IMG/VR virus record: IMGVR_UViG_3300012812_000001
DNA: 54,608 bases
Strand: one strand, 5' to 3'
DNA from: a virus
Shown: one piece after another, positions 3,132 through 45,103 of the stretch
Layout of the letters: the number at the start of each line of letters is the position of its first letter
How positions within the stretch are numbered: the stretch's first letter is position 1
Program-made: the position numbers and the translations under genes
The notes under the pieces: model-generated
The model's database searches: none
The model's input: the letters and a program-made list of their open reading frames with translations, nothing else
Told to the model about the DNA's origin: nothing

Positions 3132-6100
3132 CCCATCAAGGCTTTGAGCTGAGCGCCGTTCGCCGAGACAAAATTGAGGAAGGCGCGCTGACCGGCCGCT
3201 GTCGACAAGCCCTCCGAGAAGAAGGAAGCCGGGTCGAACGCGTTGACGATCTTGACGTCGCCCACTCCTCCATTACCGCCAGATGCCGCCCCATCCAGGG
3301 CGGCGCTGACACGCTTCGATCCTTCCTGCGCGGCGCGCAGGTTTGCCGAGAGGTTGTCGGCGTTCCGGCCGGAAATTCCTCCGGTGTGGTATTTCATGAC
3401 CCCTTTGCGGAGCATGGCGCCGATGGAATTGTTGCGATGGCGCGGGTCGTCCTCGGTCAGGACTTCCTCCCCCTTGAGCAGCAGGGACAGCCGCTCATTG
3501 GGCTTGGGGTTGAGTGCGCGCTGGAGGAAATCCTTCGCGGACATGCCCTTCATGTCGCCGGCGATGCCGCCGTCGTGATGGATACCACCGAGACCCTGCC
3601 CCGTCATCAGGCTGGTGATGACATTGCCGCCCGCGCTCCCCATCGGAGCGTGGATACCAAGAGCAGCCAGGACCATCCGCGCCACCACGGCTTTGACGAT
3701 CATCATGCCGATATCGACCAGGATCTGGCCGACAGCCGTTGCGACAGCACGTCCGAGAGATTTGAAGGCATTCTCGCCCGATGCGATATCCTGGGCAAAT
3801 TGCTGGATCGCACCGGAAATATGCCCGGTCAGCATGTCGCCGAAGCTCTGGATGCTGTCACGGTAGTCGGAAGCGGCGACGCCGCCGCGGTCGATTTCGT
3901 GCCGAAGATGCTCAAGCTCGGCTACGCGGTCACCGGCCTCGGGTCCGCCGATCGCCTGCCAGAAGGCGATTGCATTGCCGATCGCCCTCTCCAGCTCGCG
4001 ATTGACGTCATCGAGTTGGGAAACGATCCCGAGTTCGGCGTTGCGATCGCCATCCTCGCGGGCCTCCTCGAGGCGCGACATGAGGCGCTCACGCTCAGCC
4101 TGTCTGGAGGAGAGCTGCTGCTCGATCCGGTCCTGCTTGTCCTTCTCAAGCGTCGTCGCGGCCTCGATGCCATGCAGGCGCATGGCACGATCGACCTGGG
4201 CCTGCTTGTCGGCCTCGGACATCTTGACGCCGGAGCTCTCCTCACGCTTCCGGATATCCTCGAGGACCTGGGCGCGCGCGATCTCAGCCTCAACAGCACG
4301 GGCGCGATCGGCGTCTCCGCCACGCCTTGCGTCCTCGGCGGCCTTCGTCAGCTCCGCGATCTTGATGTCGAAATCCGCAGCGCGGAGGAGCTCGCCGTTC
4401 TCCTTGCCGAAATCCCTCTGCTTGTCCGCGTCTTTCTCGAGCTTGGTCCTGGCCTGCCTGGCCTTCTCGAGATCCGCCGCTTTCTCGACGGCAGACCTGA
4501 TCTCTGCCAGGGAGGCATCCTTGCTGAGGCCGGTCAGCTGCTCCAGGGAGTAGCCGCTCTCTCCCGCCTCGCGGCTGATCCGGTCGACCTCGGTCGCGAT
4601 CGCGCGCGCGAAAACCTCCGCATCAAGGAGATCCCTGGAAGAAAGCTCGCCCTTCACTGTCTCGAGCGACTTGTTGTAGTCGAGGACGGCCGTGGCGAGC
4701 TTGTCATCCTGTTTCAGAAGGATGTCACGGCGCGCAGCCTGGGCGAGATCGTCGGCGCTTTCCTTCAGGCCTGCCTCGCGGAAGCCCTGGATCACCCCCT
4801 CGATATTGCCGTCCTTCAACTCTTTCAGGAAAGTCGGGTTGGACAGGAGCTCGGGCGCCTGCAGCACACCCCCCTGCAGGCGGCGCATGGCCTCGTCGGC
4901 CATTTTCGGCGCCAGGGCCTCGACACGCTTGTAGATGTCGAGGGCTTCGGCGTTCGGGGTGATGGCGACAGCAGGATCGGCCTTCGTTCCGCGCGCGACG
5001 GCCGATGCGGCTTCGGTTGCCGCGATCGTGGCGATCTGGGTGGCCCGAGCCTCGATGCGGAAATCCGAGCCTGGGGCGAGGCCCTGCGAGCCGAACAAAT
5101 CGGCTTCGCGGCCACGGCGGGCATGAAGGACAGGGTTGAACTTGCCCTTGGCGGTATTGATGCCGTTGCGGAGACCATCCTGGGCTCCGGCATAGTCGCC
5201 AGTATTGAGCGGACGGAGAATCCCATCCGTGATTTTCCCGGTATTGAAGGCATACGAAAGCAAGGCCGTGTTCATGGCCTTGGTCAGCGGCACCTTGACC
5301 TTCTCGTCGATGATCCTCTGGAAGAGGGCGATGTCGCGGTCGAACTGCCCCCAGACCTGTTCATCGGTCAGTGTCATGCCTTCCTTCGGCTGGATACCTC
5401 CCGCAGCGCCGGTATGGCCAACCCCGATCGTCCACACCTTGCCTGCGGCATCCCAGTAGGCCTTGTTCCTGACCGCCTCTTCCTTCGCGAAGAAGGAGCG
5501 GACATCGGCATCACCCGCGGAGGAGATCATGCCCGCCTTGTCCAGGCCTGCGACGACATCTCCTCCGGATGCAATCTGAGACGCAATGACCTCAAGACGC
5601 GAGATCATGCCGTCGAGAGTGGTCTCGACCCCGGTGCCGAGATCGATCACCAACCCTTTCCCGGCGCGCTTCAGTTCATCCAGGGATTTCCGGTCAAGCT
5701 TGACGTTGACCCCCTGAGCATCGAGCATCCCCTCGATCGCATCGATCCTGGCCTGTTCCTCGGCCGCCCGGACCGTCTCGTCCAGCTGCTGGATGCGCGC
5801 GGCCTTCTCGCCGACCGACAGGTCGGTCAGGGCCTCGAGGTCCTCCCGTGCGGACTTGGCATCCTCGGAGATCTTCGCGAGCGTTTCCGACAGTTCATGG
5901 GCAATTCTGAACCGTCCGCCTTCCTTGTCGAGGCGGGCCATGGTGCCGAGTAGCTTGGCGTAGGTGGAGGCCAGGGATTTGGCTTCGCCGTCGGCCTGCG
6001 CCATGTTCGACGAAATCTGTTTGAAAATTCTCGTTTGGTCAGCACCGGTTGCATTGACCATCTGCTGATCAAGACGCAGTGCCTTGAGATTGACCGCTCG

Positions 6101-10296: not shown

Positions 10297-11070
10297 TCAG
10301 AGGCTGGTGGGCTTGCCGTTGATCTCGAGAGGCGCGAAGCCCGGCAGCTCCTCGATCTCGTAGGTGACGGTCATCTCCGTCCAGGCATCGCCTTCACCTT
10401 TCAGGATCATCTCGCCGTCGACGGTCATGAGCCCGTTGTAAGCATAGACGTCGAAGGCATTGCCTTCGTTCGCGCGGCCCACGAAATGCAGGGGGGCGCG
10501 GACGGTTGCGCCATCGGGGATCAGAACCTCCCGTTCGACCGCAGCTTGGTCGTAAGTGACCGTGATATCCTCTGCGTCGGCACCGGTATCCATGATGTAG
10601 ACCCGACCCTCGGAGGCGTTGACGACGTAGTCGACGCGGTTCACGAGCGGCGTCGCGCCTCTCGTTACTTCAGTGACCGTGACCTCTCGAACGCCGGTCG
10701 GTGTGCTGTCCGAGGATCCCAATTGCAGCCAGCGATTGCCCGCGACAGCCTGGAAGGTCTCGGATGTGTCGGTGGCGGCCGCTTGCGCCACTTTCGTCGG
10801 AGTGCCGCCGAAACGCAGGGACAGAGCCTGGAAATCGATGTTGTCGACAACGAAGACGAGCGAATGCGAGACGGAGGTCTCGACTGTCCGGTCCTTCACG
10901 CGCTTGCCGTTCTTGTTGTTGAAATGCTCAAGCTTTTCGGTGGTCTTGTTGTGAGTCAGGCTCTTGATGTTCCCGATGGGGGATTCCACCCCGGTCGGGG
11001 CCGTCGTTCCCGGGCGGAACGCGCCCAGGTAAAGCTCACCACCCTGGATCAAAAGGTTGTCGAGGTTCAT
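10297..11070 (-). CDS. Major tail tube protein (lambda V position)
   Basis: 257-aa ORF between the U-like and G-like genes, with beta-rich composition. Followed by a strong hairpin, as expected for an abundant structural protein. Confidence 0.6.
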   Translation of the reverse strand: MNLDNLLIQGGELYLGAFRPGTTAPTGVESPIGNIKSLTHNKTTEKLEHFNNKNGKRVKDRTVETSVSHSLVFVVDNIDFQALSLRFGGTPTKVAQAAATDTSETFQAVAGNRWLQLGSSDSTPTGVREVTVTEVTRGATPLVNRVDYVVNASEGRVYIMDTGADAEDITVTYDQAAVEREVLIPDGATVRAPLHFVGRANEGNAFDVYAYNGLMTVDGEMILKGEGDAWTEMTVTYEIEELPGFAPLEINGKPTSL

Positions 11071-11150
11071 GCTGATCTCCTTGATCGTTGCAATTGGATC
11101 TATGCTCGGGCCGAGAAAAGCCTAGAGTTTTTCCACTTCTTATATGAATT

Positions 11151-21214: not shown

Positions 21215-21775
21215 CTACAGGGCGCATCCCGGTTCAAGCTCATCCCAGACAGGGTTCACCGGAAGGTCCCGGGCCCGCTCAACAATTTCCGCTGCGCTTA
21301 CGGGACGGAAATCCCAGACGTCGCACCCGACATTCACCGAGTTTCTGGTGCCCTTCCAGTTGTTGTGGACATGCCCGAACAACTGGATCGCCCCGTGGCG
21401 GGAGCCAGGGAACGTGATCATCGGATAGTGGTGCATGTAGAAGCGCTGGCCGTCGACGGTTTTGTCGAGGGACTCCTGCGTGCTCGCCCAGGGTAGTTCG
21501 TTCTTGATCCAGGGCTTGTCGTGGTTGCCCCAGACGAGGTGCTTCCTGCCGGGGAGCGACATAAAGGTTTTTCGGACCGCCCTCTTGCCGTCATCGTCCA
21601 CCTTTCCTGCGATCAGGTCACCGAGGAAGTAGACGTCATCCCCCTGCCCTACCCGGTTGGTCCACTCCTGCACCAGCCGGTCATGCATCTCGCTGAGATC
21701 TGCGAAGGGGCGCTGGCAGAACTGGATGATGTTTGCATGACCGAGGTGCAGGTCGGCGGTGAACCAGGTTGCCAT
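21215..21775 (-). CDS. Metallophosphoesterase (calcineurin-like)
   Basis: ADLHLGH, GDL, GNHD, and GHVH motifs occur in canonical order. Confidence 0.8.
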   Translation of the reverse strand: MATWFTADLHLGHANIIQFCQRPFADLSEMHDRLVQEWTNRVGQGDDVYFLGDLIAGKVDDDGKRAVRKTFMSLPGRKHLVWGNHDKPWIKNELPWASTQESLDKTVDGQRFYMHHYPMITFPGSRHGAIQLFGHVHNNWKGTRNSVNVGCDVWDFRPVSAAEIVERARDLPVNPVWDELEPGCAL

Positions 21776-21843: not shown

Positions 21844-22137
21844 TTAATCTTTCCCCTCGTATCGGTCCATAAGGAGTTCAAGCATATCGAAATACTTGTA
21901 TCGTAGACGTCCGGACTCACACATCGCCTTGAATCGGTCGATGATATGTGCCGGTCCCTTGATGGAAACCTGGGACTGCGGGACGAACTCGTTCGACTCC
22001 CTGGACGGCCAGCTGCCCGGCGCCGGAGCCTGGTGGGTGGCCACATCCGGGCGGATTTGAGGGGCGGGCCGCTCAACCGGGGCGAACTGCGCCAGGCGAT
22101 CTGCGATATCACCAGTTTTATCGATTGGCTTAGGCAT
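21844..22137 (-). CDS. Small partition partner protein (ParG/ParB-like by position)
   Basis: 97-aa ORF from ATG 22137, overlapping the parA stop by 8 nt. Its size and position are typical of type Ib centromere-binding proteins. No motif recognised. Confidence 0.45.
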   Translation of the reverse strand: MPKPIDKTGDIADRLAQFAPVERPAPQIRPDVATHQAPAPGSWPSRESNEFVPQSQVSIKGPAHIIDRFKAMCESGRLRYKYFDMLELLMDRYEGKD

Positions 22138-22801
22138 TGCGGATCTCCTCCAGGATAGTGATGACCTCATCAGCAAATTTCGTGGCGTTCTCAATTGCCT
22201 TTTCGACGCCGCTGACGTCGCTTCTATCCAGCTCGCGAAGGCCACCTCCAGAATTGTGGAGAGACGAGTAAGCGGTCCGACGGACTAGTTCCGTGCTGAA
22301 CACCCTGCCCTTCTCACGCAACTCTGCGGCGATGTAGCGCTCCAGTCTGGATTTCACGGCCGGCGCCACCCTGGCAAGAAGGATGACCGCGGGGATGTCC
22401 CGACGCGAAGATCTGCCGACAAGCTTGACCTCGGCCAGCGTATCGAGCGCTGCCTTTGCATCCTGTTGCTCCTCACCTGTCGGGATGATGACCAGGTCGG
22501 AGCTGGACATCGCCCTGGAAGAGAGTTGCGATGCCGAGCCTTCGAGATCGACGACGACGAATGCGGACTTCCCGGTCGCCTCCTCGATCTCGTCGAGGAT
22601 GTGCTTCTCGCCGCCAGAGGAGACCACTTCCATTCGGTCCGGCACGGTTCCAGCTTGCGACCAATCCACAAGACGTTTCGCGGGGTCGGCATCGATCAGG
22701 GTGACAGTAGCGCCTGCTGCTGCAAGTTCCGTCCCCAAGACTATGGCTGATGTGGTTTTTCCTGCGCCGCCTTTCGACGACGCGAACGCGATGACTGGCA
22801 T
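22130..22801 (-). CDS. parA: ParA/Soj-family partition ATPase
   Basis: Deviant Walker A in MPVIAFASSKGGAGKTTSAIVLG, then LIDADP. The ATG at 22801 is preceded by AAGGAG. Confidence 0.9.
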   Translation of the reverse strand: MPVIAFASSKGGAGKTTSAIVLGTELAAAGATVTLIDADPAKRLVDWSQAGTVPDRMEVVSSGGEKHILDEIEEATGKSAFVVVDLEGSASQLSSRAMSSSDLVIIPTGEEQQDAKAALDTLAEVKLVGRSSRRDIPAVILLARVAPAVKSRLERYIAAELREKGRVFSTELVRRTAYSSLHNSGGGLRELDRSDVSGVEKAIENATKFADEVITILEEIRNA

Positions 22802-23052
22802 CCTGCGCTCCTTTTCCTGCTCTGCTTCATGGACGGACCGCCTTTGTGGCGCCATGCCGGATTATTTTCAGGTCCTTACAGTGGGGTATGGTGCTGTAAC
22901 GTGAAAAAGTCAACGGCACCCTGCCCATTTATTCCAATGTGTAACGCACCTTGCGTAACTATTCCGTAGTGCGACCATGTGCACTCATTGGTATAGTAGA
23001 GTACACTTCCGCAAAGCTCCGCACCAATGCCATGGGGACTGTGGAAAGCCGT

Positions 23053-34200: not shown

Positions 34201-35091
34201 CTAATGCGCCGATATTTGCCAGCCATGAGCTGCGCATATCGACTCTTCCTGCTGGGTGACCTTGTGGGAAATGAAATCACTCGGACCGCAAAAAGGCAGG
34301 CCAAGGGCGTGGATCAATGCCGCATCATATGTGCCACTGAGCAACAGGATCCCTTCCGCCGCGAGCCGGTTTCGACTTCCGCGCGGACCATCAGCCCTTA
34401 TCCGCCTCATGTAATCCTTTTGAGCCGCGGCCTCCTCGACGATCCGGCGGGAAATGACGCGATCGGTGACGCCCCTGAAAAGCTCGACAAGCTTGTCGTT
34501 ACCGGTCCTGGCCGCGAAAATGGAATCCACCAGGTTCGAGGAGATGGTGCGCCAGAAATTCTGTTCGACAGGGTGGTCACGCAAGAGCCAGAGGATCTGG
34601 GTCGATCCGAATGCCGACACGCTCCTCTTCCCGTCCCTGTTGGCCCCGCCCGTCAGGTTCGCCATATCGGCATAGAAAATTCCCAGGAAACAGCGAGAAT
34701 GCTGTTCATCGAGCGCCGCGAGAAGGCAGGCATGACCAACGGCTTCCTGGGGGATCATCCAGCTACCGGTGATCGTGAACTTCATGTCCACGTCCTCGCC
34801 GCCGATGATGAAGTCCAGTCGACCCTTCGGGACCTGCATCTTCGCCCGCATGAGAATTTCGACGCGCGTGCCGAGATAGGTCTTCTCGGTTTTCTCGAGC
34901 TGGCCGTATGACCGGCGGCGGGTATTCACGGTGTCGATGACATCATCGACAACCTTGCGAAGCATCCCGGGAAACCAGGTCGCCGCCTCCGCCCGCCCGC
35001 CCAGGTGCCGTTCGACCTCTTGCCCAAGCCTTGTCAGATCACCGTAGCGCGGATGACCAGGAACGATCAGGCTGGGCGCGGGTGACCTCAT
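34201..35091 (-). CDS. Type II restriction endonuclease, NaeI family
   Basis: ...EKTEKTYLGTRVEILMR...GGEDVDMKFT...WMIPQEAVGHACLL...LTGGANRDGKRS...ELFRGVTDRVISRRIVEEAAAQKDYMRRIR...AAEGILLL...LGLP... tracks the NaeI sequence as I recall it. It lies downstream of a C5-methyltransferase gene with a 4-nt overlap. Confidence 0.75.
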   Translation of the reverse strand: MRSPAPSLIVPGHPRYGDLTRLGQEVERHLGGRAEAATWFPGMLRKVVDDVIDTVNTRRRSYGQLEKTEKTYLGTRVEILMRAKMQVPKGRLDFIIGGEDVDMKFTITGSWMIPQEAVGHACLLAALDEQHSRCFLGIFYADMANLTGGANRDGKRSVSAFGSTQILWLLRDHPVEQNFWRTISSNLVDSIFAARTGNDKLVELFRGVTDRVISRRIVEEAAAQKDYMRRIRADGPRGSRNRLAAEGILLLSGTYDAALIHALGLPFCGPSDFISHKVTQQEESICAAHGWQISAH

Positions 35092-36035
35092 GCCGCGGCA
35101 TAGATCCGCTTCGATCTGATTGCGACAGCAATCTGTCGGCCCACCGCCTCCGCGACCGGCGGCGGGAAGGCATTACCCACCTGCCGGTATGCATGAGTTT
35201 TCCGGCCGTGGAATTGCCAGTCGTCAGGGAAACCCTGCAGGCGGGCCACCATCCGGATGGTAAGCCTGGGCATCCCGACGAAGTCCTTCTCGGGCGCCTC
35301 TTCGGCCAGCGTCTTGCCATTGACGCCCAGGGTCGCCCAAGCCGCCCGTGCGCGGGTGGGGCCAAGATCGGGGCCGCCGTGCTTCTTTGAGCCGCCGACA
35401 ATCGTCGGAGCGATTTCGTCGGCCCGCTCGGCCCAGGCACGGGCGCCCGGCCAACCCTTCGCGGCCATGAGGTCACCGAGGACCTTGCCGACGGTCGGGG
35501 GGTTGTGATGCCGTTCCTCGGGCCACTCAAACTTGTCTGCGATGTCTTTTTTGACGGCCACGATGACCACGCGGGGGCGGAGCTGCGGGACGCCGAAGTG
35601 AGAGGCGTTCAGAAGACGCCAATCAGCCACGTATCCGAGCTTGATCAGCTTCTTCTTCAGGGATTGCCGGTAGTCGACGAAGACCGCATCAAGGAAACCG
35701 CGCACGTTCTCGAGCATGACCGCCTGGGGGCGGATCTCATCGACCAGGCGCAGAGCTTCAGGGAACAGGTCGCGCTCGTCGTCCTTGCCGAGCTGCTTGC
35801 CTGCCACGGAGAACGGCGGGCACGGGACGCCGCCTGCAAGGAGCTCCACACCGGCGAAGGGCTTGCCGTCAAAGGTGCGCAGATCCCCCTCGCGGACGTC
35901 CCAGGTCGGGCGGTTGAGGCGTAGCGTCTGGCAGGCATGTGTGTCGATTTCGACGAGGGCGTCGTGGTCGAAGCCCGCCCGTTCAAGACCGAGGGCTTGG
36001 CCTCCTGCACCTGCGCAAAGCTCTACTGATCGCAT
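35088..36035 (-). CDS. DNA (cytosine-5) methyltransferase
   Basis: Motif I ELCAGAGG, motif IV GGVPCPPFS, and motif VI MLENVRGF. Confidence 0.9.
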   Translation of the reverse strand: MRSVELCAGAGGQALGLERAGFDHDALVEIDTHACQTLRLNRPTWDVREGDLRTFDGKPFAGVELLAGGVPCPPFSVAGKQLGKDDERDLFPEALRLVDEIRPQAVMLENVRGFLDAVFVDYRQSLKKKLIKLGYVADWRLLNASHFGVPQLRPRVVIVAVKKDIADKFEWPEERHHNPPTVGKVLGDLMAAKGWPGARAWAERADEIAPTIVGGSKKHGGPDLGPTRARAAWATLGVNGKTLAEEAPEKDFVGMPRLTIRMVARLQGFPDDWQFHGRKTHAYRQVGNAFPPPVAEAVGRQIAVAIRSKRIYAAA

Positions 36036-37603: not shown

Positions 37604-37685
37604 AAAAACGAGGTTTCTGGGGCGAGCGACGAGGTATTTGGGGCGTAGAACGAGGAATCCGGGTCGAAAAACGAGGTTTCTGGGG
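37604..37685 (+). repeat. Four tandem iterons at 21-bp spacing (consensus AAAACGAGGwwTCTGGGG)
   Basis: The ACGAGG cores are at 37608, 37629, 37650 and 37671. The first and fourth copies are identical. Confidence 0.85.
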
Positions 37686-37888: not shown

Positions 37889-38803
37889 ATGGTAGATCAA
37901 TCTCTTCCGACGCGCGTGTTCGATCTGAAGCCGGTCTATGGGGAGGCGATCAAGCCATCCGAACTGATCCAGATTACTGGCCACCAGAACCTCACCCTCA
38001 GCGCCCGGCGGGCGATCACGATCCTTTGGCACAATGCGCATCGCCAAGGTATTGAGGAGGGAAAGTATTATACCATTGAGTTGGCGGATCTACGGACGGA
38101 CGGGCACAAAGGGAAGGACACGATTGAAGACTCGATAGAGGTTCTGATGCAGACCGTCCTGAAGATGAAGCTGAAAGGTAAGGCTGTTCGTCGTGTGCAG
38201 TTCCTGGGCGGGAACGACATGGACGATCCCGGCCGCCCGTCCGGGACTTTGAAATACAGCTTTGACCCGCTGCTAGTGGATATACTGCGAGACTCTGCTG
38301 TCTGGGGAAAAATTGCGATCCCGGTCTTAATGGCCTTTTCTTCGAAATATGCCGTTTCTCTCTACGAGCATGCATGTCAGTGGACTGGCTTACAGCACAA
38401 GCTCGTCCAGGATTTCACCCTTGATGAGCTGCGCCTCATGATGGGGGTCGAGAAGGGAAAATATTCTGCGTTTGGCGATTTAAACATCCACGTCCTCAAG
38501 CCTGCTGCTAAAGAGATCAATGCCCTAGCACCTTTTAACGTCCAGATTTTGCCCGTCAAAGAGGGTCGCCGCGTTGTCGGCGTAAAGATCGGCTGGGGCA
38601 GGAAGAACATCGAGGAACTCCAGGAAGCCTTCAGGGAGAGCCAAAGGTCGAAGGTTGGACGCAAAGCGCGTTTGTCGGGGCTTGCGGAAGCTGTCGTAGG
38701 GGCGGTGCCAAGCTTGAGCAGCCACTCCCGGGCGGCACGGCTCACGGCCAGGAAAGATGTGGATCGTGTGATCGATGACGGCGATGAGCCGTCATCTTCT
38801 TGA
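37889..38803 (+). CDS. repA: Iteron-binding plasmid replication initiator (Rep_3/RepA-type)
   Basis: ...LIQITGHQNLTLSARRAITILWHNAH..., ...FSSKYAVSLYEHACQW..., and ...LDELRLMMGVEKGKYSAFGDLNIHVLKPAAKEINA... follow the Rep_3 pattern. Iterons lie immediately upstream. Confidence 0.85.
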   Translation: MVDQSLPTRVFDLKPVYGEAIKPSELIQITGHQNLTLSARRAITILWHNAHRQGIEEGKYYTIELADLRTDGHKGKDTIEDSIEVLMQTVLKMKLKGKAVRRVQFLGGNDMDDPGRPSGTLKYSFDPLLVDILRDSAVWGKIAIPVLMAFSSKYAVSLYEHACQWTGLQHKLVQDFTLDELRLMMGVEKGKYSAFGDLNIHVLKPAAKEINALAPFNVQILPVKEGRRVVGVKIGWGRKNIEELQEAFRESQRSKVGRKARLSGLAEAVVGAVPSLSSHSRAARLTARKDVDRVIDDGDEPSSS

Positions 38804-38940: not shown

Positions 38941-39729
38941 TCACGAAATCAGGCCGCGCTGTAGGATTTCCACCTCTGTCCCAGGCGGGACCTCCCAAGG
39001 GTAGCCAAAGGAGACGTTCCGGACGACGGTGTTGCCGACCATTGCCTCGCTGCGGTGGTGAGTATGCCCGAAAAGCCAGGCATCCGGTTGATACCGATGA
39101 ATGAACCCAATAAGGTCCGAGGCATATGCGGGCTGTGCGCAAGCGTCCTGGGACGCCGCCAGGGCAGGGTGTGGCGCATGATGTGTCACGACGATTGTGC
39201 GGCCTCTGAACGGCCGTTCCAAGGCCTTCCCGAGCCAGGATAGGTGGTCTCGGTGAATAGCCGCGGTGTCCCCCGGTGAAATCATGCGATCGTCCCGGCC
39301 GCGGATCTGCTTGTAGTCGTTCATCCACTTCTGGGCACCCATTTCTCCGATCAGGGCGTCGCCGTGGAGCGCAAAATCGGTCCACAGGGTGCAGCAGAGG
39401 ACCCGGTCTCGGCCCACGATGATCTCCGACTTCTGTGCAAGCCTGCCACCTGCGGAAATGCAGATCTCAGCAAGGGTGTCCTCGTCGTCAAGGACATGCC
39501 CGTAATAATCGTGATTCCCGGGAATGATATGGAGCTTCCCAGGGCCGACAAGGTGCGCGAGACGCTCCAGGTGGCGCGGCCAGAGCTGCACCGGATCATT
39601 GGACAGGTCGCCGGCGATGATGAGAGCGTCCAGGTCGGCCAGGATTGCCGCATCGAGACCGGCGAGCGGGTCTCGCCCTGCGGCGGCCCAGACATCGAGG
39701 TGCGGGTCGGCTATGATGAGGGTGGACAT
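38941..39729 (-). CDS. Metallophosphoesterase (Icc/CpdA-like layout)
   Basis: From ATG 39729: LIIADPHLD, IIAGDLSND, IPGNHDYY, VVTHHAP, and FGHTHH in canonical order. The 13 codons upstream in the track ORF are read-through of the repeat module. Confidence 0.8.
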   Translation of the reverse strand: MSTLIIADPHLDVWAAAGRDPLAGLDAAILADLDALIIAGDLSNDPVQLWPRHLERLAHLVGPGKLHIIPGNHDYYGHVLDDEDTLAEICISAGGRLAQKSEIIVGRDRVLCCTLWTDFALHGDALIGEMGAQKWMNDYKQIRGRDDRMISPGDTAAIHRDHLSWLGKALERPFRGRTIVVTHHAPHPALAASQDACAQPAYASDLIGFIHRYQPDAWLFGHTHHRSEAMVGNTVVRNVSFGYPWEVPPGTEVEILQRGLIS

Positions 39730-39751
39730 GGTGATCCTGTCGGTGAGCGCA

Positions 39752-40029
39752 TAGTAGGTGAAGGGCACATACTAGACACCTACTACCCGACCTGCTAGAG
39801 ATTTTTGTGTTCTATATCAAGATTCTAAGGGAAGAATCTGACCACCTAGCAGGTTAGCAGGTGGTTTCGCAGACTTCTATAGAGCTGAAAAATAGTTTCT
39901 ACCTCCTATAGGAGTTTGTTTTTCACCTACTAACCTACTAGATTTTGAAATACCCCACTGATAAATAACAATAAAACAGGCTAGTAGGTGCCCTAGTAGG
40001 TGGGTAGTATGTGCCCTCCACCTACTAGG
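39752..40029. repeat. Left mirror module (~278 bp): 47-bp inverted end motifs, a TAGTAGGTG/CACCTACTA array, and central palindrome CTCCTATAGGAG (39903-39914)
   Basis: Read directly. Six exact 9-mer copies at 39752, 39982 and 39994 on plus, and 39777, 39924 and 40019 as reverse complement. There are about four one-mismatch copies. The interior is AT-rich. Confidence 0.9.
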
Positions 40030-40248
40030 CGCCGACTACGAACGGTGGTGTGCCTTGGAAGACAAATGTTACATAATAACGGTTATCACCATTCCGTGAG
40101 CGCTTTGGCGGGGGCCTCCAACGGAAGGAAAAGGTGATATCCTCGCCTCGAATAGCTATGAAGGGTTCCATCAAGTCCAGGAACGCCGTAAAAAGGTCTC
40201 GGCGTCATTCGACAAAGGGCATTGCGTTAATATCCTGGAGACCATGCA

Positions 40249-41352
40249 ATGCCACGCATCCCGTTCATCGAAGCTAAATTCGCAAGAGATGATTATAAGC
40301 ACGACCTGCTTGTCGATCGTTTCGAAAAATATCTGAAGCAGCTCCGGCGATCAAAGACTGCAGATATTGCAGGCGAGGACGCAAATGCGGATGATTATAG
40401 TCTTCCGGAGCTTTTTGACGGGTCCGATACCGTCGCATTACGCAGAGCCGATCAGACCAAAATCGCACGCCGGGTTTCGAAGCTTGTCAATGCGCACCTG
40501 GCAGCTACCGGAATAGATCACCTAAGCGATAGCGACAAGAAGCGCCTGGTCGGCTTGCGGGATGGCGTCGAGATTGTCGCTATCGAGAGCGAAGCTCGGG
40601 CAGATGAGATCGCTGCCGACCTGCATGCGGACATGCCATGGATGGCACCGGCTACGACAGTCGTCTGGCATGCCCTGCGGCGTTCCGTCCGGGAGGGATG
40701 GACTGGCGTGCGCCTACCCCCGCTCCTTCTCTCTGGCCCGCCCGGGATCGGTAAATCACATTTTGCCCGGCGCCTCGCAGGGCTGGTGGGCACGTCGACA
40801 GACGACATTGAAGCAACCCACGAGACGGCGGGTTTTGGTATTTCTGGGTTGCAGAAGGGCTGGGGGACAGCGAATCCCGGACGCCTGCTCGAGCTGATCC
40901 TGAAGACCCGGATCGGTAACCCTATCATTGTCATCGACGAAGTGGAGAAAGCGGGAGTTATGGTGGCGAAGAGTGGCGAGCGACACACGCTGGCGGATGC
41001 TCTCCTGCCCTTACTTGAGCCGCTTTCAGCAAAGAGCTGGTCCTGTCCATACTTCCGGGTCCGCTTCGACATGTCCTGGGTCGGCTGGGTGATGACCGCC
41101 AATGATCATACTCGGCTCCCTGCCCCGCTCCTGAGTCGATGCCCGCCGGTCGTGCTGCGCGATCTTACGCTTGCCGAGGTCTCCCAACATATTCGGTTCG
41201 AGGGGAAGCGACGCGGGCTCTCGCATGTCGCGATCGATGCGACCCTAGAAGCGGTTGAGCGACATGCCGGTCGGCATCGCATTGATCTGAGATTGGCCGG
41301 GCGGCTCCTGGATCGCGCTGTGGACCTGCAGGACGGGCCGGTCTTGAACTGA
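40249..41352 (+). CDS. Lon-type AAA+ ATPase module without a protease domain (367 aa), unknown N-terminal ~160 aa
   Basis: LLLSGPPGIGKSHFARRLA (Walker A), PIIVIDEVEKAG (Walker B), and ...ADALLPLLEP...SWVGWVMTANDHTRLPAPLLSRC... align motif-for-motif with the Lon ATPase domain (GPPGVGKTS, LLDEIDK, ALLEVLDPEQN, FVATSNS..IPAPLLDR). Confidence 0.8.
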   Translation: MPRIPFIEAKFARDDYKHDLLVDRFEKYLKQLRRSKTADIAGEDANADDYSLPELFDGSDTVALRRADQTKIARRVSKLVNAHLAATGIDHLSDSDKKRLVGLRDGVEIVAIESEARADEIAADLHADMPWMAPATTVVWHALRRSVREGWTGVRLPPLLLSGPPGIGKSHFARRLAGLVGTSTDDIEATHETAGFGISGLQKGWGTANPGRLLELILKTRIGNPIIVIDEVEKAGVMVAKSGERHTLADALLPLLEPLSAKSWSCPYFRVRFDMSWVGWVMTANDHTRLPAPLLSRCPPVVLRDLTLAEVSQHIRFEGKRRGLSHVAIDATLEAVERHAGRHRIDLRLAGRLLDRAVDLQDGPVLN

Positions 41353-41389
41353 CATGGAGGGCAGAGGGGTGGGAGTTGGGCTCGTCCAA

Positions 41390-41668
41390 CTAGTAGGTGA
41401 AGGGCACATACTAGCCACCTACTAGGGCACCTACTAGCCAATTTGTCTTTACTTATCAGTGGGATATTTCCAAATCTAGTAGGTTAGTAGGTGAAAAAAC
41501 AAACTCCTATAGGAGGTAAAAAACTATTTTCAGTTCTATAGAAGTCTGCGAAACCACCTGCTAACCTGCTAGAGAGCCGGATTTTGAATGTAAGTTGTTG
41601 GTGTAGAATGGAAATAATTCTAGCAGGTCAGGTAGTAGGTGGGTAGTATGTGCCCTCCACCTACTAGG
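41390..41668. repeat. Right mirror module (~279 bp), reverse complement of the left module; central palindrome at 41504-41515
   Basis: 41390-41572 is the reverse complement of 39846-40029 with a few mismatches and 1-nt indels. 41620-41668 is the reverse complement of 39752-39798. Six exact 9-mer copies at 41391, 41485 and 41633 on plus, and 41416, 41428 and 41658 as reverse complement. Confidence 0.9.
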
Positions 41669-41690
41669 TGGCGGTGGCAGAGCAGGAGGC

Positions 41691-41870
41691 ATGACCACGC
41701 CGGGAGATAAAGCGAACACCCCTCGAGATGGGCAAGGGCCTGTGCGCAGCAAGGAACTGCTCACGGTCCTGGCCAGACTGGACCCGCTCGGAGCCGAGGA
41801 CCAGATGCCCGACCTGGACGAAACGCTTCTCCCGGCCAAAGAAATTGACCTCAGATCAGGCGGCCGATGA
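41691..41870 (+). CDS. Possible 59-aa ORF leaving the right module
   Basis: The ATG is preceded by AGGAGG, but the spacing is only 1 nt. Mostly G/C-ending codons. It is below the track length cut-off. Confidence 0.25.
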   Translation: MTTPGDKANTPRDGQGPVRSKELLTVLARLDPLGAEDQMPDLDETLLPAKEIDLRSGGR

Positions 41871-43056: not shown

Positions 43057-43623
43057 ATGACATTCATGAGCAGCTCACCACAAAGGCCGGCCTGGATCGT
43101 AGGAGCCACCTCTTGGGGAATTCCCGTCATCGACGAGAAATCCCTCGCGAAATTCCTATATGAAAATGCGAAGCCGGAAACATTTTCGCATGAGACGCCA
43201 TCGGCCATGGCGGAGAGGGTCATCGCCAGTATGGATGCCGTCCCGGCAACGTGGCCGGGACGGGTGTCCCGCGCATCCTGGCCGGTTCACCGTATGGCCC
43301 TTGCAAGGGTAACCACCGGCTTGCGCCAGTGCTGCGAGCGGGTTGCGAAAACTCTGCCAGGATCGCAAGCCCGGGTCGATGCCATCCTCGAAGCGCTCAA
43401 ACTCACCCAGGCCGTCATTGATGCCAGGGCCTCGCGAGAGACGAGAAGCGGATTCATCGCGTTGATGGAATATATGCGGGACTACCAACCCGATCCTGCG
43501 CCGCCCCGACCAGGCCCTTGCTGTGCCCCGCCACCCGCAGACATCACGCGCAAAACGCAATCGTTCTTCCGGTCGTTACACACGGATATTCGCGACTACG
43601 AGGACCCCCTCAAGCATATCTGA
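43057..43623 (+). CDS. Hypothetical 188-aa protein
   Basis: The internal ATG at 43057 is preceded by GGGAG. The frame looks coding. The C-terminus is Pro-rich. Confidence 0.45.
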   Translation: MTFMSSSPQRPAWIVGATSWGIPVIDEKSLAKFLYENAKPETFSHETPSAMAERVIASMDAVPATWPGRVSRASWPVHRMALARVTTGLRQCCERVAKTLPGSQARVDAILEALKLTQAVIDARASRETRSGFIALMEYMRDYQPDPAPPRPGPCCAPPPADITRKTQSFFRSLHTDIRDYEDPLKHI

Positions 43624-44092: not shown

Positions 44093-45103
44093 TCAAGCTC
44101 TCGGCCGCGGCCCATCTCCAGACGTCCAGGTCAACGGCCTCGCCGCCTCGACCGAGATGATCGGCGAACGCTTGGACTGACCCTGTTGGCTAGACCCGTA
44201 GGCCGACTGCGACTTGACCGCTTTATGCCCGAGCGACAATGCCGTCCGCTCCTTGTCGCCGTCGGCCTTCAGATCGCTACTGCCGGCATGCCGGAAGGTG
44301 TAGGCGTTCAGGCGCTGGTCCCAGCCCATCTTCCAGCCCAGGATTTCCAGGTCTTTGTCCAGGGTCTTCCGGTTGCGAGAGTAGTCCATCTCGTCATCGG
44401 TCATGCAGCTCACAACGGCCTTTCCCGCGGGCATCGTGGCGTCGATCTCGAGGATCCGGTATGGCTGGCCAGCACCGGTCAGCTCGGAGCATTTCGCACC
44501 CTCGATCCGGACGAATACCGACCGGCCGACCTTCCGGATCGACACGCCCCTCTGCAGCTCGGCCGGGCGCACCCCTGACGCCCAGAGCAACGCCACGGCC
44601 ATCCTCGAGGGAGCGGAAGCCAGGCGAAAAGCGTCGGCTCGCCAGTCGTGCTCGCCGCTAGGAAGACGATGTTTCATCGTCTGCTTCTCGGCCAACCCCG
44701 CAGGCTTTTCGGCTTTGTCGACCTGATCATACATGTCGAGACTTGCCGCCAGCATTTCGACGAGACGAGTGAGTTTCGCCTCGACATTCTCGCCCTCTTT
44801 ACCGGCATACCCCTGGTCATAGATGCGCACCAAGGTGGCATAGATATTCCGGATCATCATGGCATGCTGGTATTTGAGGGCAGCCCGAAAAACTTTCCAG
44901 GACCGACCGGGGATATCGACAAGCGGATCCTCTTTCTCCGCTGTTCTCGCATAGATCAGCTTGTATGTCTTGATCGTCGATGCTGATCTTTCCGCCTGAG
45001 CATGCTCAAGCGGCCCCCTCACCCGTTCCTGGACCTCATCAAGAACCGCCTTCAATTTTTGGTTTTTCGCGTCCATCAGGACCTCCCTCTTAACTACGTC
45101 CAT
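44093..45103 (-). CDS. Tyrosine site-specific recombinase
   Basis: ...LLWASGVRPAEL... (Arg), ...AYTFRHAGSSDL... (His-x-x-Arg), ...LGHKAVKSQSAYG (His ... Tyr). The alternative ATG at 45076 has the better RBS (GGGAGG). Confidence 0.7.
   Translation of the reverse strand: MDVVKREVLMDAKNQKLKAVLDEVQERVRGPLEHAQAERSASTIKTYKLIYARTAEKEDPLVDIPGRSWKVFRAALKYQHAMMIRNIYATLVRIYDQGYAGKEGENVEAKLTRLVEMLAASLDMYDQVDKAEKPAGLAEKQTMKHRLPSGEHDWRADAFRLASAPSRMAVALLWASGVRPAELQRGVSIRKVGRSVFVRIEGAKCSELTGAGQPYRILEIDATMPAGKAVVSCMTDDEMDYSRNRKTLDKDLEILGWKMGWDQRLNAYTFRHAGSSDLKADGDKERTALSLGHKAVKSQSAYGSSQQGQSKRSPIISVEAARPLTWTSGDGPRPRA

Follow-up and report, generated by a model that had tools for sequence, protein, structure and literature searches.

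The window analysed here, the whole 54,608-nucleotide (nt) stretch of viral DNA in the IMG/VR record IMGVR_UViG_3300012812_000001, carries two related non-coding modules of 276 base pairs (bp), M1 and M2, on either side of a gene for an AAA+ ATPase. The ends of these modules are chimeric, and the explanation favoured here, with a rough probability of 0.55, is that the interior of one of two old paralogous copies was once inverted and left its trace in these ends, rather than that the modules form a working switch. Each module is bounded by inverted repeats of 47 nt, extendable to 52 nt and 83-85% complementary, which enclose an interior of 182 bp; the ends are designated X1 and X2 in M1 and X3 and X4 in M2, with positions numbered from the outside inwards (Table 1). 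A first-pass annotation of this DNA had quoted the four end sequences, X2 and X4 as reverse complements (40027-39981 and 41666-41620), and the 47-mers read exactly so. Its observation that the bases at positions 10 and 24 depend on whether an end is the left or the right one of its module, and that the inner part is mirror-paired, also held on verification, and this arrangement is improbable under a simple inverted duplication.

In the order X1, X3, X2, X4, the ends carry A, A, G, G at position 10 and G, G, C, C at position 24, so that X1 groups with X3 and X2 with X4, i.e. by left and right end. The mirror pairing, X1 with X4 and X2 with X3, is found at positions 35, 36, 38 and 43 and across the 182-bp interior; position 37 has three states (C, G, G, T), and the A at position 25 is found in X1 alone. 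Between the two modules, the outermost 34 bp of the ends form direct repeats, and all the sequence further inside is inverted. The orientation of the interior is unambiguous, since that of M1 matches the reverse complement of that of M2 at 147 of 184 positions (80%, score 102), as against 111 of 195 (57%, score 5) in the direct comparison. The exchange of outer versus inner parts is confined to the invariant CACCTACTA at positions 26-34, and the combination to be explained is L-alpha...beta-R in one module and L-beta...alpha-R in the other, where L and R are the outer types and alpha and beta the inner types of the ends. With outer parts direct and interiors inverted, an odd number of turns of the interior against its ends must separate one module from the other, and among the alternatives enumerated (exchange of X2 with X3 or of X1 with X4, integration of a module circle, and exchange between interiors) none fits without a flip. 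Chance was evaluated by simulating a mirror duplication followed by independent substitutions and counting the trials with at least two left/right-pattern sites in the 34 outer positions. None of 60,000 trials gave such a result at the substitution rate of the ends themselves (0.011 per lineage; P < 2e-5), and P rose to 1.5e-4 at a rate of 0.03, 2e-3 at 0.06 and 0.02 at 0.115, the near-neutral rate of the divergent patches. The chimerism of the ends is real and unlikely to have arisen by chance, although it rests on two nucleotides.

The modules are built around a 10-bp motif, CTAGTAGGTG, which occurs with at most one mismatch in 18 copies in the window, 17 of them inside the modules, compared with 0.58 expected by chance. 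Allowing two mismatches, each module contains 12 copies in the order + - - - / + + / - - / + + + -, and each end consists of a (+) motif, 5 nt, a (-) motif, 1 nt, a (-) motif, 2 nt and a final (-) motif, with a period of 11-12 nt. The 5-nt spacer of the inverted motif pair at each end reads [A/G]AGGG and occupies positions 10-14, including the diagnostic position 10. The centre of M1 holds two copies each of TAGCAGGT and ACCTACTA together with TCTATAGA and CTCCTATAGGAG. Identity between M1 and M2 is 91-100% in the ends, 93% in the centre (39846-39941), 77% in patch B (39942-39980) and 51% in patch A, the spacer beside the alpha end; M1 and M2 have thus kept their motif blocks and centre alike, and the spacers have drifted. 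From this between-copy footprint it follows that the duplication is old and that the motif blocks and the centre of both modules are constrained. In M1 as in M2, patch A is turned towards the outside gene and the beta side towards the ATPase gene; patch A may carry gene-specific promoter sequence.

Both interiors are diverged palindromes, with self reverse-complement alignment scores of 14 and 5 versus -30 +/- 8 for shuffled sequences, and as single strands the modules fold much more stably than shuffles, with z values of -8.7 and -9.4. The inverted repeat continues for 3-4 bp past the 47-mer in both modules (39747-39751/40028-40032 and 41386-41390/41667-41671), with different and compensatory-looking bases in the two (M1, GCGC/GCGC; M2, CCA.C/G.TGG). 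Computed post hoc, the probability that both extensions arose by chance is about 2e-4, suggesting either a role for the stem or cruciform as such or the action of palindrome-correcting repair. The modules are AT-rich, with a GC content of 42% overall and 36% in the interior, as compared to 60% for the whole window, and 15 of the 31 CTAG tetranucleotides in the window fall within their combined 552 bp. A sigma-70-like candidate promoter, a single match to 9 of 12 consensus positions, lies at 39945-39972 in the interior of M1 facing the ATPase gene; none was called in M2. Several other identities for the modules were considered and set aside. The iterons of the Rep protein are a different, 21-nt repeat; Rfam returned no RNA family; and a telomere-resolution site does not agree with an imperfectly palindromic module centre, a circular contig and a recombinase too small for a protelomerase. 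A literature search for the motif returned primers only.

In the favoured explanation, an AT-rich, diverged-palindrome module of 276 bp was duplicated long ago, M1 and M2 being the paralogous copies that now flank the ATPase gene. Positions 10 and 24 would first have diverged between left and right ends, and one of the modules would then have had its interior turned over by a single reciprocal exchange between its own 47-52-bp inverted ends, resolved within the shared CACCTACTA at positions 26-34, so that both chimeric ends would have arisen at once. This exchange may have been carried out by the tyrosine recombinase encoded nearby; it may just as well stem from general or replication-linked recombination, acting on inverted repeats that lie close together. 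The modules themselves most likely provide multiple binding sites for a putative motif-specific protein, whether as operator or promoter, for recombination or for partition. One reciprocal exchange is more economical than two conversion tracts with a shared boundary or four directed substitutions. That the interior of a module was inverted at all, by whichever mechanism, is a broader proposition, and it can be called likely once the present explanation is combined with that of an active switch and their overlap is allowed for.

Evidence on the orientation of the modules was drawn from consensus contigs of five assemblies, three from ENA and two Logan samples, and all the junctions recovered from them are in the state of the window. 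The X1, X3 and X4 junctions were present in Logan SRR6474783 and in ENA ERZ27245272, and all four in ERZ27245276 and ERZ27245287. In ERZ27245272, a 761-nt contig running from the M2 interior across X4 is identical to the window, as are the full ENA contigs (n = 2) across the modules. The contigs of SRR6474783 that cross X1 (from outside, as far as 39875) and X3 (from the ATPase gene, as far as 41564) are unbranched and likewise identical to the window. Logan contigs end only at exact repeats of at least 31 nt: the ends at 39875, 40000, 41564 and 41639 are each 30 nt inside an exact repeat 36-38 nt long, as expected from an assembly with k = 31, and none of these breaks falls at the junction between positions 34 and 35, where a mixed population would branch. 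Both orientations within one population, the hallmark of an inverton, were found in none of the five assemblies, and both modules look fixed in the populations sampled. The first-pass annotation had described the modules as switches caught in opposite states, and as an ongoing process this does not agree with the data: the junctions recovered from the five assemblies are all in a single state, and two modules with identical ends that are fixed in opposite states fit neither fast unbiased flipping, as mixed populations would result, nor an end-biased switch, as both copies would then rest alike.

A number of observations weigh against the explanation by one past inversion. The discordance is carried by two nucleotide positions only, and if the exchange had taken place at the motif core, positions 10-14, position 24 would be left as the sole informative site. 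The only inverted motif pair of each end flanks positions 10-14, and positions 26-34 lie between directly repeated motifs; a motif-binding recombinase exchanging at 10-14 would carry position 24 along with the interior, contrary to the data. Judged from the motif layout, a site-specific crossover at 26-34 would thus lack the expected half-site symmetry. General or replication-linked recombination between short, closely spaced inverted repeats needs no such symmetry. An inversion of the interior with crossover in CACCTACTA, as originally proposed for this DNA, stands as the most economical account of the ends, whereas the motif layout predicts that a site-specific exchange would occur at 10-14. 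In addition, the outer ends are 98.5% identical between the modules, compared with 51-77% for the spacers, and gene conversion among the ends could give the same pattern. Finally, consensus assemblies would miss a minority orientation present at below roughly 10-20%.

In an active double inverton, the recombinase would turn over both 182-bp interiors, perhaps together with the segment that holds the ATPase gene, and would so redirect promoters to the neighbouring phosphoesterase gene, ATPase gene or 59-codon open reading frame (ORF); the modules would have been sampled here in opposite phases. The segments have the appropriate form, being about 280 bp, AT-rich, non-coding, bounded by inverted repeats and directly upstream of genes, and a switch of this kind leaves chimeric ends. 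In architecture the ends resemble a recombinase site with accessory arms, as in the Tn4430 IRS (PMC2847244), a tyrosine recombinase is encoded 2.4 kilobases (kb) away, and the candidate promoter in M1 faces the ATPase gene. Nevertheless, an active switch appears doubtful: no alternative-state junction was seen in the five assemblies and the Logan contigs are unbranched across X1 and X3, the opposite fixed states of identical ends suit neither unbiased nor end-biased switching, the interval 26-34 has no flanking inverted half-sites, and the promoter is a single 9/12 consensus match. The recombinase gene is moreover separated from M2 by five genes, and a relative of its product on a mini-plasmid suggests multimer resolution. 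A more elaborate, shufflon-like device can also be conceived, in which the divergent tyrosine recombinase would act on four composite sites whose left and right versions differ in their spacer, such that the AT-rich promoter cassettes could flip independently and the ATPase gene with one module could be excised or exchanged between like sites. Such a device would provide combinatorial control of the phosphoesterase/ATPase accessory cluster; it is unlikely to operate here.

A mirror duplication could also have been followed by gene conversion, in which X1 and X2 served as templates for rewriting the outer 34 bp of X3 and X4, or by strand-wise selection at positions 10 and 24, if the same A.C and G.G mismatches were needed on the same strand of a hairpin or cruciform. 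One difference in 68 outer positions beside diverged spacers is what homogenisation gives, the layout is mirror-symmetric with both beta sides towards the ATPase gene, and the 3-4-bp repeat extensions with their differing bases (about 2e-4) point to a stem that matters or gets corrected. This account nonetheless requires either two tracts ending in the same 9 bp or four directed substitutions, and since the homology between mirror partners is longer than that between direct partners, conversion should favour mirror pairing; it is accordingly given little weight. A miniature mobile element inserted twice, the end pattern then reflecting element variants, would explain the 47-bp terminal inverted repeats, a GC content of 36-42% against 60%, the intergenic location and the lack of a counterpart in homologous gene clusters. 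Such an element is quite improbable, however, as a target-site duplication is missing (CCAA/GTGG, which flanks M2, is inverted rather than direct, and GCGC/GCGC, which flanks M1, is ambiguous because GCGC is palindromic), only two copies occur in the window with no transposase encoded nearby, and searches of 185,579 species-representative genomes, IMG/VR, JGI metagenomes, PLSDB and phage records gave no match. Insertion in either orientation would, moreover, be mirrored over the whole length. Independent parallel substitutions, which would be needed only at positions 10 and 24, are hardly credible given simulated P values from below 2e-5 at the rate of the ends to 0.02 at the near-neutral rate. 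Overall, the interpretation first offered for these modules is retained in part: one past interior inversion is the best explanation of their ends, and the assemblies give no sign of two active switches driven by the recombinase.

The modules belong to a known kind of element, the invertible or inverted segment bounded by inverted repeats in a mobile replicon. Both are inverted-repeat-bounded segments, as in invertons. Invertible promoters driven by tyrosine recombinases include fimS of E. coli, with FimB and FimE, and the cwpV and flagellar switches of C. difficile, with RecV. In such switches exchange takes place in a short shared core, the outer half-sites staying in place and the inner ones being carried along. 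The modules resemble fimS and cwpV in being non-coding segments of about 200-300 bp, bounded by inverted repeats, upstream of genes and on a replicon that encodes a tyrosine recombinase, and their chimerism is that left by a fimS-type exchange. Unlike in fimS, with its 9-bp repeats, the module repeats are 47-52 bp long and composed of four motif copies, and the recombinase gene is not adjacent; they also differ from fimS-type switches in occurring as two paralogous copies in opposite orientation, in showing one orientation in the samples and in having only a candidate promoter. Serine invertases, by comparison, switch tail-fibre genes in the G segment of Mu (Gin) and the C segment of P1 (Cin), the repeats of P1 C measuring 0.6 kb. 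The likeness to these lies in a gene-containing segment between long inverted repeats on a phage or phage-plasmid, but the bracketed gene here encodes an ATPase and no serine recombinase was found among the ORFs scanned in the window. In the R64 shufflon, segments recombined by Rci swap the coding 3' ends of pilV. Several alternating plasmid sites together with a tyrosine recombinase recall this system, and nested inversions of interior 1, interior 2, the ATPase segment and the whole region are conceivable, although the module interiors are non-coding and no alternative arrangement was observed.

The site of the Tn4430 TnpI recombinase consists of four motif copies, an IR1-IR2 inverted pair around a short spacer with DR1-DR2 on one side (PMC2847244), and the same layout, an inverted core pair with two accessory direct repeats, is found in all four module ends. 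In Tn4430 there is one such site per replicon, and it selects deletion between direct repeats (PMC2847244). Here, by contrast, four alternating and more compact sites lie within 1.9 kb rather than a single one acting on direct repeats in dimers or cointegrates, no Tn3-family transposase is present, and binding by the recombinase is putative. Miniature inverted-repeat transposable elements (MITEs) are characterised by target-site duplications and many dispersed copies; the modules have no such duplication and number two in the window.

If the modules do flip, they would constitute a paired promoter switch on a phage-plasmid, built of unusually long composite recombination sites and involving a recombinase family with some 1,400 representatives, which would add a regulatory layer to poorly known mobile replicons and offer a compact test case for how recombination-site asymmetry sets the outcome. 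If they record one past inversion, as favoured, their value is smaller: they would neatly illustrate how regulatory DNA is reshuffled through short inverted repeats, and would caution against taking chimeric repeat ends by themselves as proof of phase variation.

Table 1. Coordinates and properties of the modules, their ends and selected genes in the window.
Feature	Position	Strand	Description
Module M1	39752-40027		276 bp, 42% GC
End X1	39752-39798	+	Outer type L (A10, G24, private A25), inner type alpha (CCCGACCTGCTAG); motifs + - - -
M1 interior	39799-39980		182 bp, 36% GC
End X2	39981-40027	-	Outer type R (G10, C24), inner type beta (GGGCACCTACTAG)
Module M2	41391-41666		276 bp
End X3	41391-41437	+	Outer type L, inner type beta; chimera relative to M1
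M2 interior	41438-41619		Reverse complement of M1 interior (147/184 matches)
End X4	41620-41666	-	Outer type R, inner type alpha; chimera relative to M1
Invariant 9-mer CACCTACTA (positions 26-34)	39777-39785, 39994-40002, 41416-41424, 41633-41641		
Patch A	39799-39845 (M1), 41572-41619 (M2)		Spacer beside the alpha end, 51% identical
Metallophosphoesterase	38941-39729	-	262 amino acids (aa); true start 39729 by homologue alignment, 22 nt outside X1
AAA+ ATPase	40249-41352	+	367 aa; bracketed by M1 and M2
59-codon ORF	41691-41870	+	Just outside the alpha end of M2; no family match
Divergent tyrosine recombinase	44093-45103	-	336 aa; 2.4 kb from M2, five genes between
Rep_3 initiator	37889-38803		21-nt iterons at 37607-37685
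ParA-like ATPase gene	22130-22855		

The product of 44093-45103, which the first-pass annotation had called a tyrosine recombinase, escapes detection by standard models: neither Pfam nor PHROGs returned a significant match, Phage_integrase scoring 13.5 bits against a cut-off of 27.1 (E = 0.06). A profile of three sequences matches XerA (5hxy) at 6.5e-5, and a profile of 40 family members matches XerA at 7.9e-9 and IntI4 at 3.6e-5; 30 of the 40 sampled relatives match Phage_integrase (PF00589). Residues R178, K203, Y267, R270, H271 and Y301 are invariant in the 40 relatives and H292 is nearly so, with a tyrosine (Y267) in place of the usual first histidine of the HxxR motif. XerA and IntI are also the best Foldseek matches, obtained with a low-confidence structural model (predicted local distance difference test score, pLDDT, 59). 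By these profile matches and conserved catalytic residues the protein is a divergent tyrosine recombinase, and the call is upheld. An exhaustive search yielded 1,414 family representatives at 50% clustering, the proteins being about 340 aa long. One relative with 28% identity sits on a 3.6-kb circular mini-plasmid, a location that hints at multimer resolution as the typical role of the family. The window contains no palindromic site adjoining the recombinase gene, and the module ends are the only nearby candidate sites for the enzyme, linked to it by proximity only. A recombinase relative that is 89% identical lies on a 3.3-kb contig which diverges before the modules would be reached, and a metagenome scan for the family returned nothing.

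Palindromic arrays were seen near two more distant relatives of the recombinase. The IMG/VR locus L047 carries two 48-nt palindromes, at 3806-3853 and 11025-11072, 7.2 kb apart and around one of these relatives, each made of four 10-mers of the AAGTAGTG type (-> -> <- <-), and AAGTAGTG resembles TAGTAGGTG. The first palindrome is directly upstream of tandem KfrA_N genes; for this reason the likeness of the motifs was dropped as support for recombinase binding, and the palindromic site is more likely an operator. The modules share features with such plasmid operator or centromere arrays, namely a 10-bp motif in both orientations, spacing of about a helical turn and a location in the promoter regions of maintenance genes. 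They are nevertheless far larger than the KfrA_N site, with 12 motifs and an AT-rich pseudo-palindromic interior, and there is no KfrA-like gene among the ORFs scanned in the window. The modules may thus still be operators or centromeres. At L045, on a 45-kb viral contig, a second distant recombinase relative has, at a distance of 4.7 kb, a nested palindromic module of about 350 bp (965-1313) that includes eight or more GTGCAAY motifs; the module's architecture is like that of M1 and M2 and its sequence is unrelated.

Relatives of the modules themselves were sought in several ways. Megablast of 39600-41800 against plasmids and distant-mode blastn of M1 against plasmids and phages gave no match, nor did an exact scan of IMG/VR for the end motif or a scan of JGI metagenomes with a 26-base pattern. 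A degenerate 9-N16-9 scan retrieved three chance hairpins only from IMG/VR and, from the 185,579 genomes, 26 single matches in unrelated taxa, about the number estimated for chance. Genes homologous to those around the modules, about 50% identical, occur on plasmids of Paracoccus, Ketogulonicigenium and Martelella, and the modules are absent from all three of these loci carrying ATPase homologues; the modules are therefore additions peculiar to this replicon. In Paracoccus and Ketogulonicigenium the phosphoesterase gene is co-directional with the ATPase gene and 76 nt upstream of it, in a conserved cluster, and the Martelella locus has no phosphoesterase gene.

The replicon is circular and about 54.5 kb in size, as follows from the 123-nt overlap of the window termini and the match to two MEGAHIT contigs of 54,626 nt. 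Its combination of tailed-phage and plasmid genes identifies it as a phage-plasmid: the former include the large terminase, portal, head protease, major head protein, tail proteins and a 2136-aa tape measure, as well as a DNA polymerase, a primase-helicase and a GH108 lysin, and the latter the Rep_3 initiator and ParA-like ATPase (Table 1). No close relative of the whole replicon was found in PLSDB, phage records or IMG/VR, and the IMG/VR relatives retrieved via Rep have only Rep and ParA in common with the window.

Both modules lie in a lower-GC accessory and maintenance region adjoining rep. M1 is situated between the phosphoesterase and ATPase genes, which are transcribed divergently, and M2 38 nt past the stop codon of the ATPase gene and 24 nt ahead of the 59-codon ORF. 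The ATPase belongs to a family common on Rhodobacterales plasmids, the best homologue being 54% identical, and PADLOC did not match it to a known defence system. The Rhodobacterales plasmid cluster (loci L004-L006) comprises genes for DUF6634, an IS66 TnpB-like protein, a phosphoesterase, the AAA ATPase, a further DUF6634 protein and a second phosphoesterase. This cluster is broken up in the present phage, its first two genes being divergent and the second phosphoesterase gene (21215-21775) adjoining parA; a remnant of the conserved operon on the M2 side was considered, and no trace of DUF6634 was detected there.

ARAGORN called an 89-nt transfer RNA (tRNA), 'tRNA-His (anticodon atg)', at 43200-43288, inside the ORF at 43057-43623; Rfam has no tRNA there, and the call is probably a false positive. 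An ORF of 87 aa at 42509-42772 matches the N-terminal part of the PADLOC model for the candidate defence component PDC-M06B (E = 1e-13), and the region from rep to the lysis genes may be an accessory or defence island. At 34201-36035, a NaeI-type restriction endonuclease gene lies beside that of a C5 cytosine methylase, forming a complete type II restriction-modification pair.

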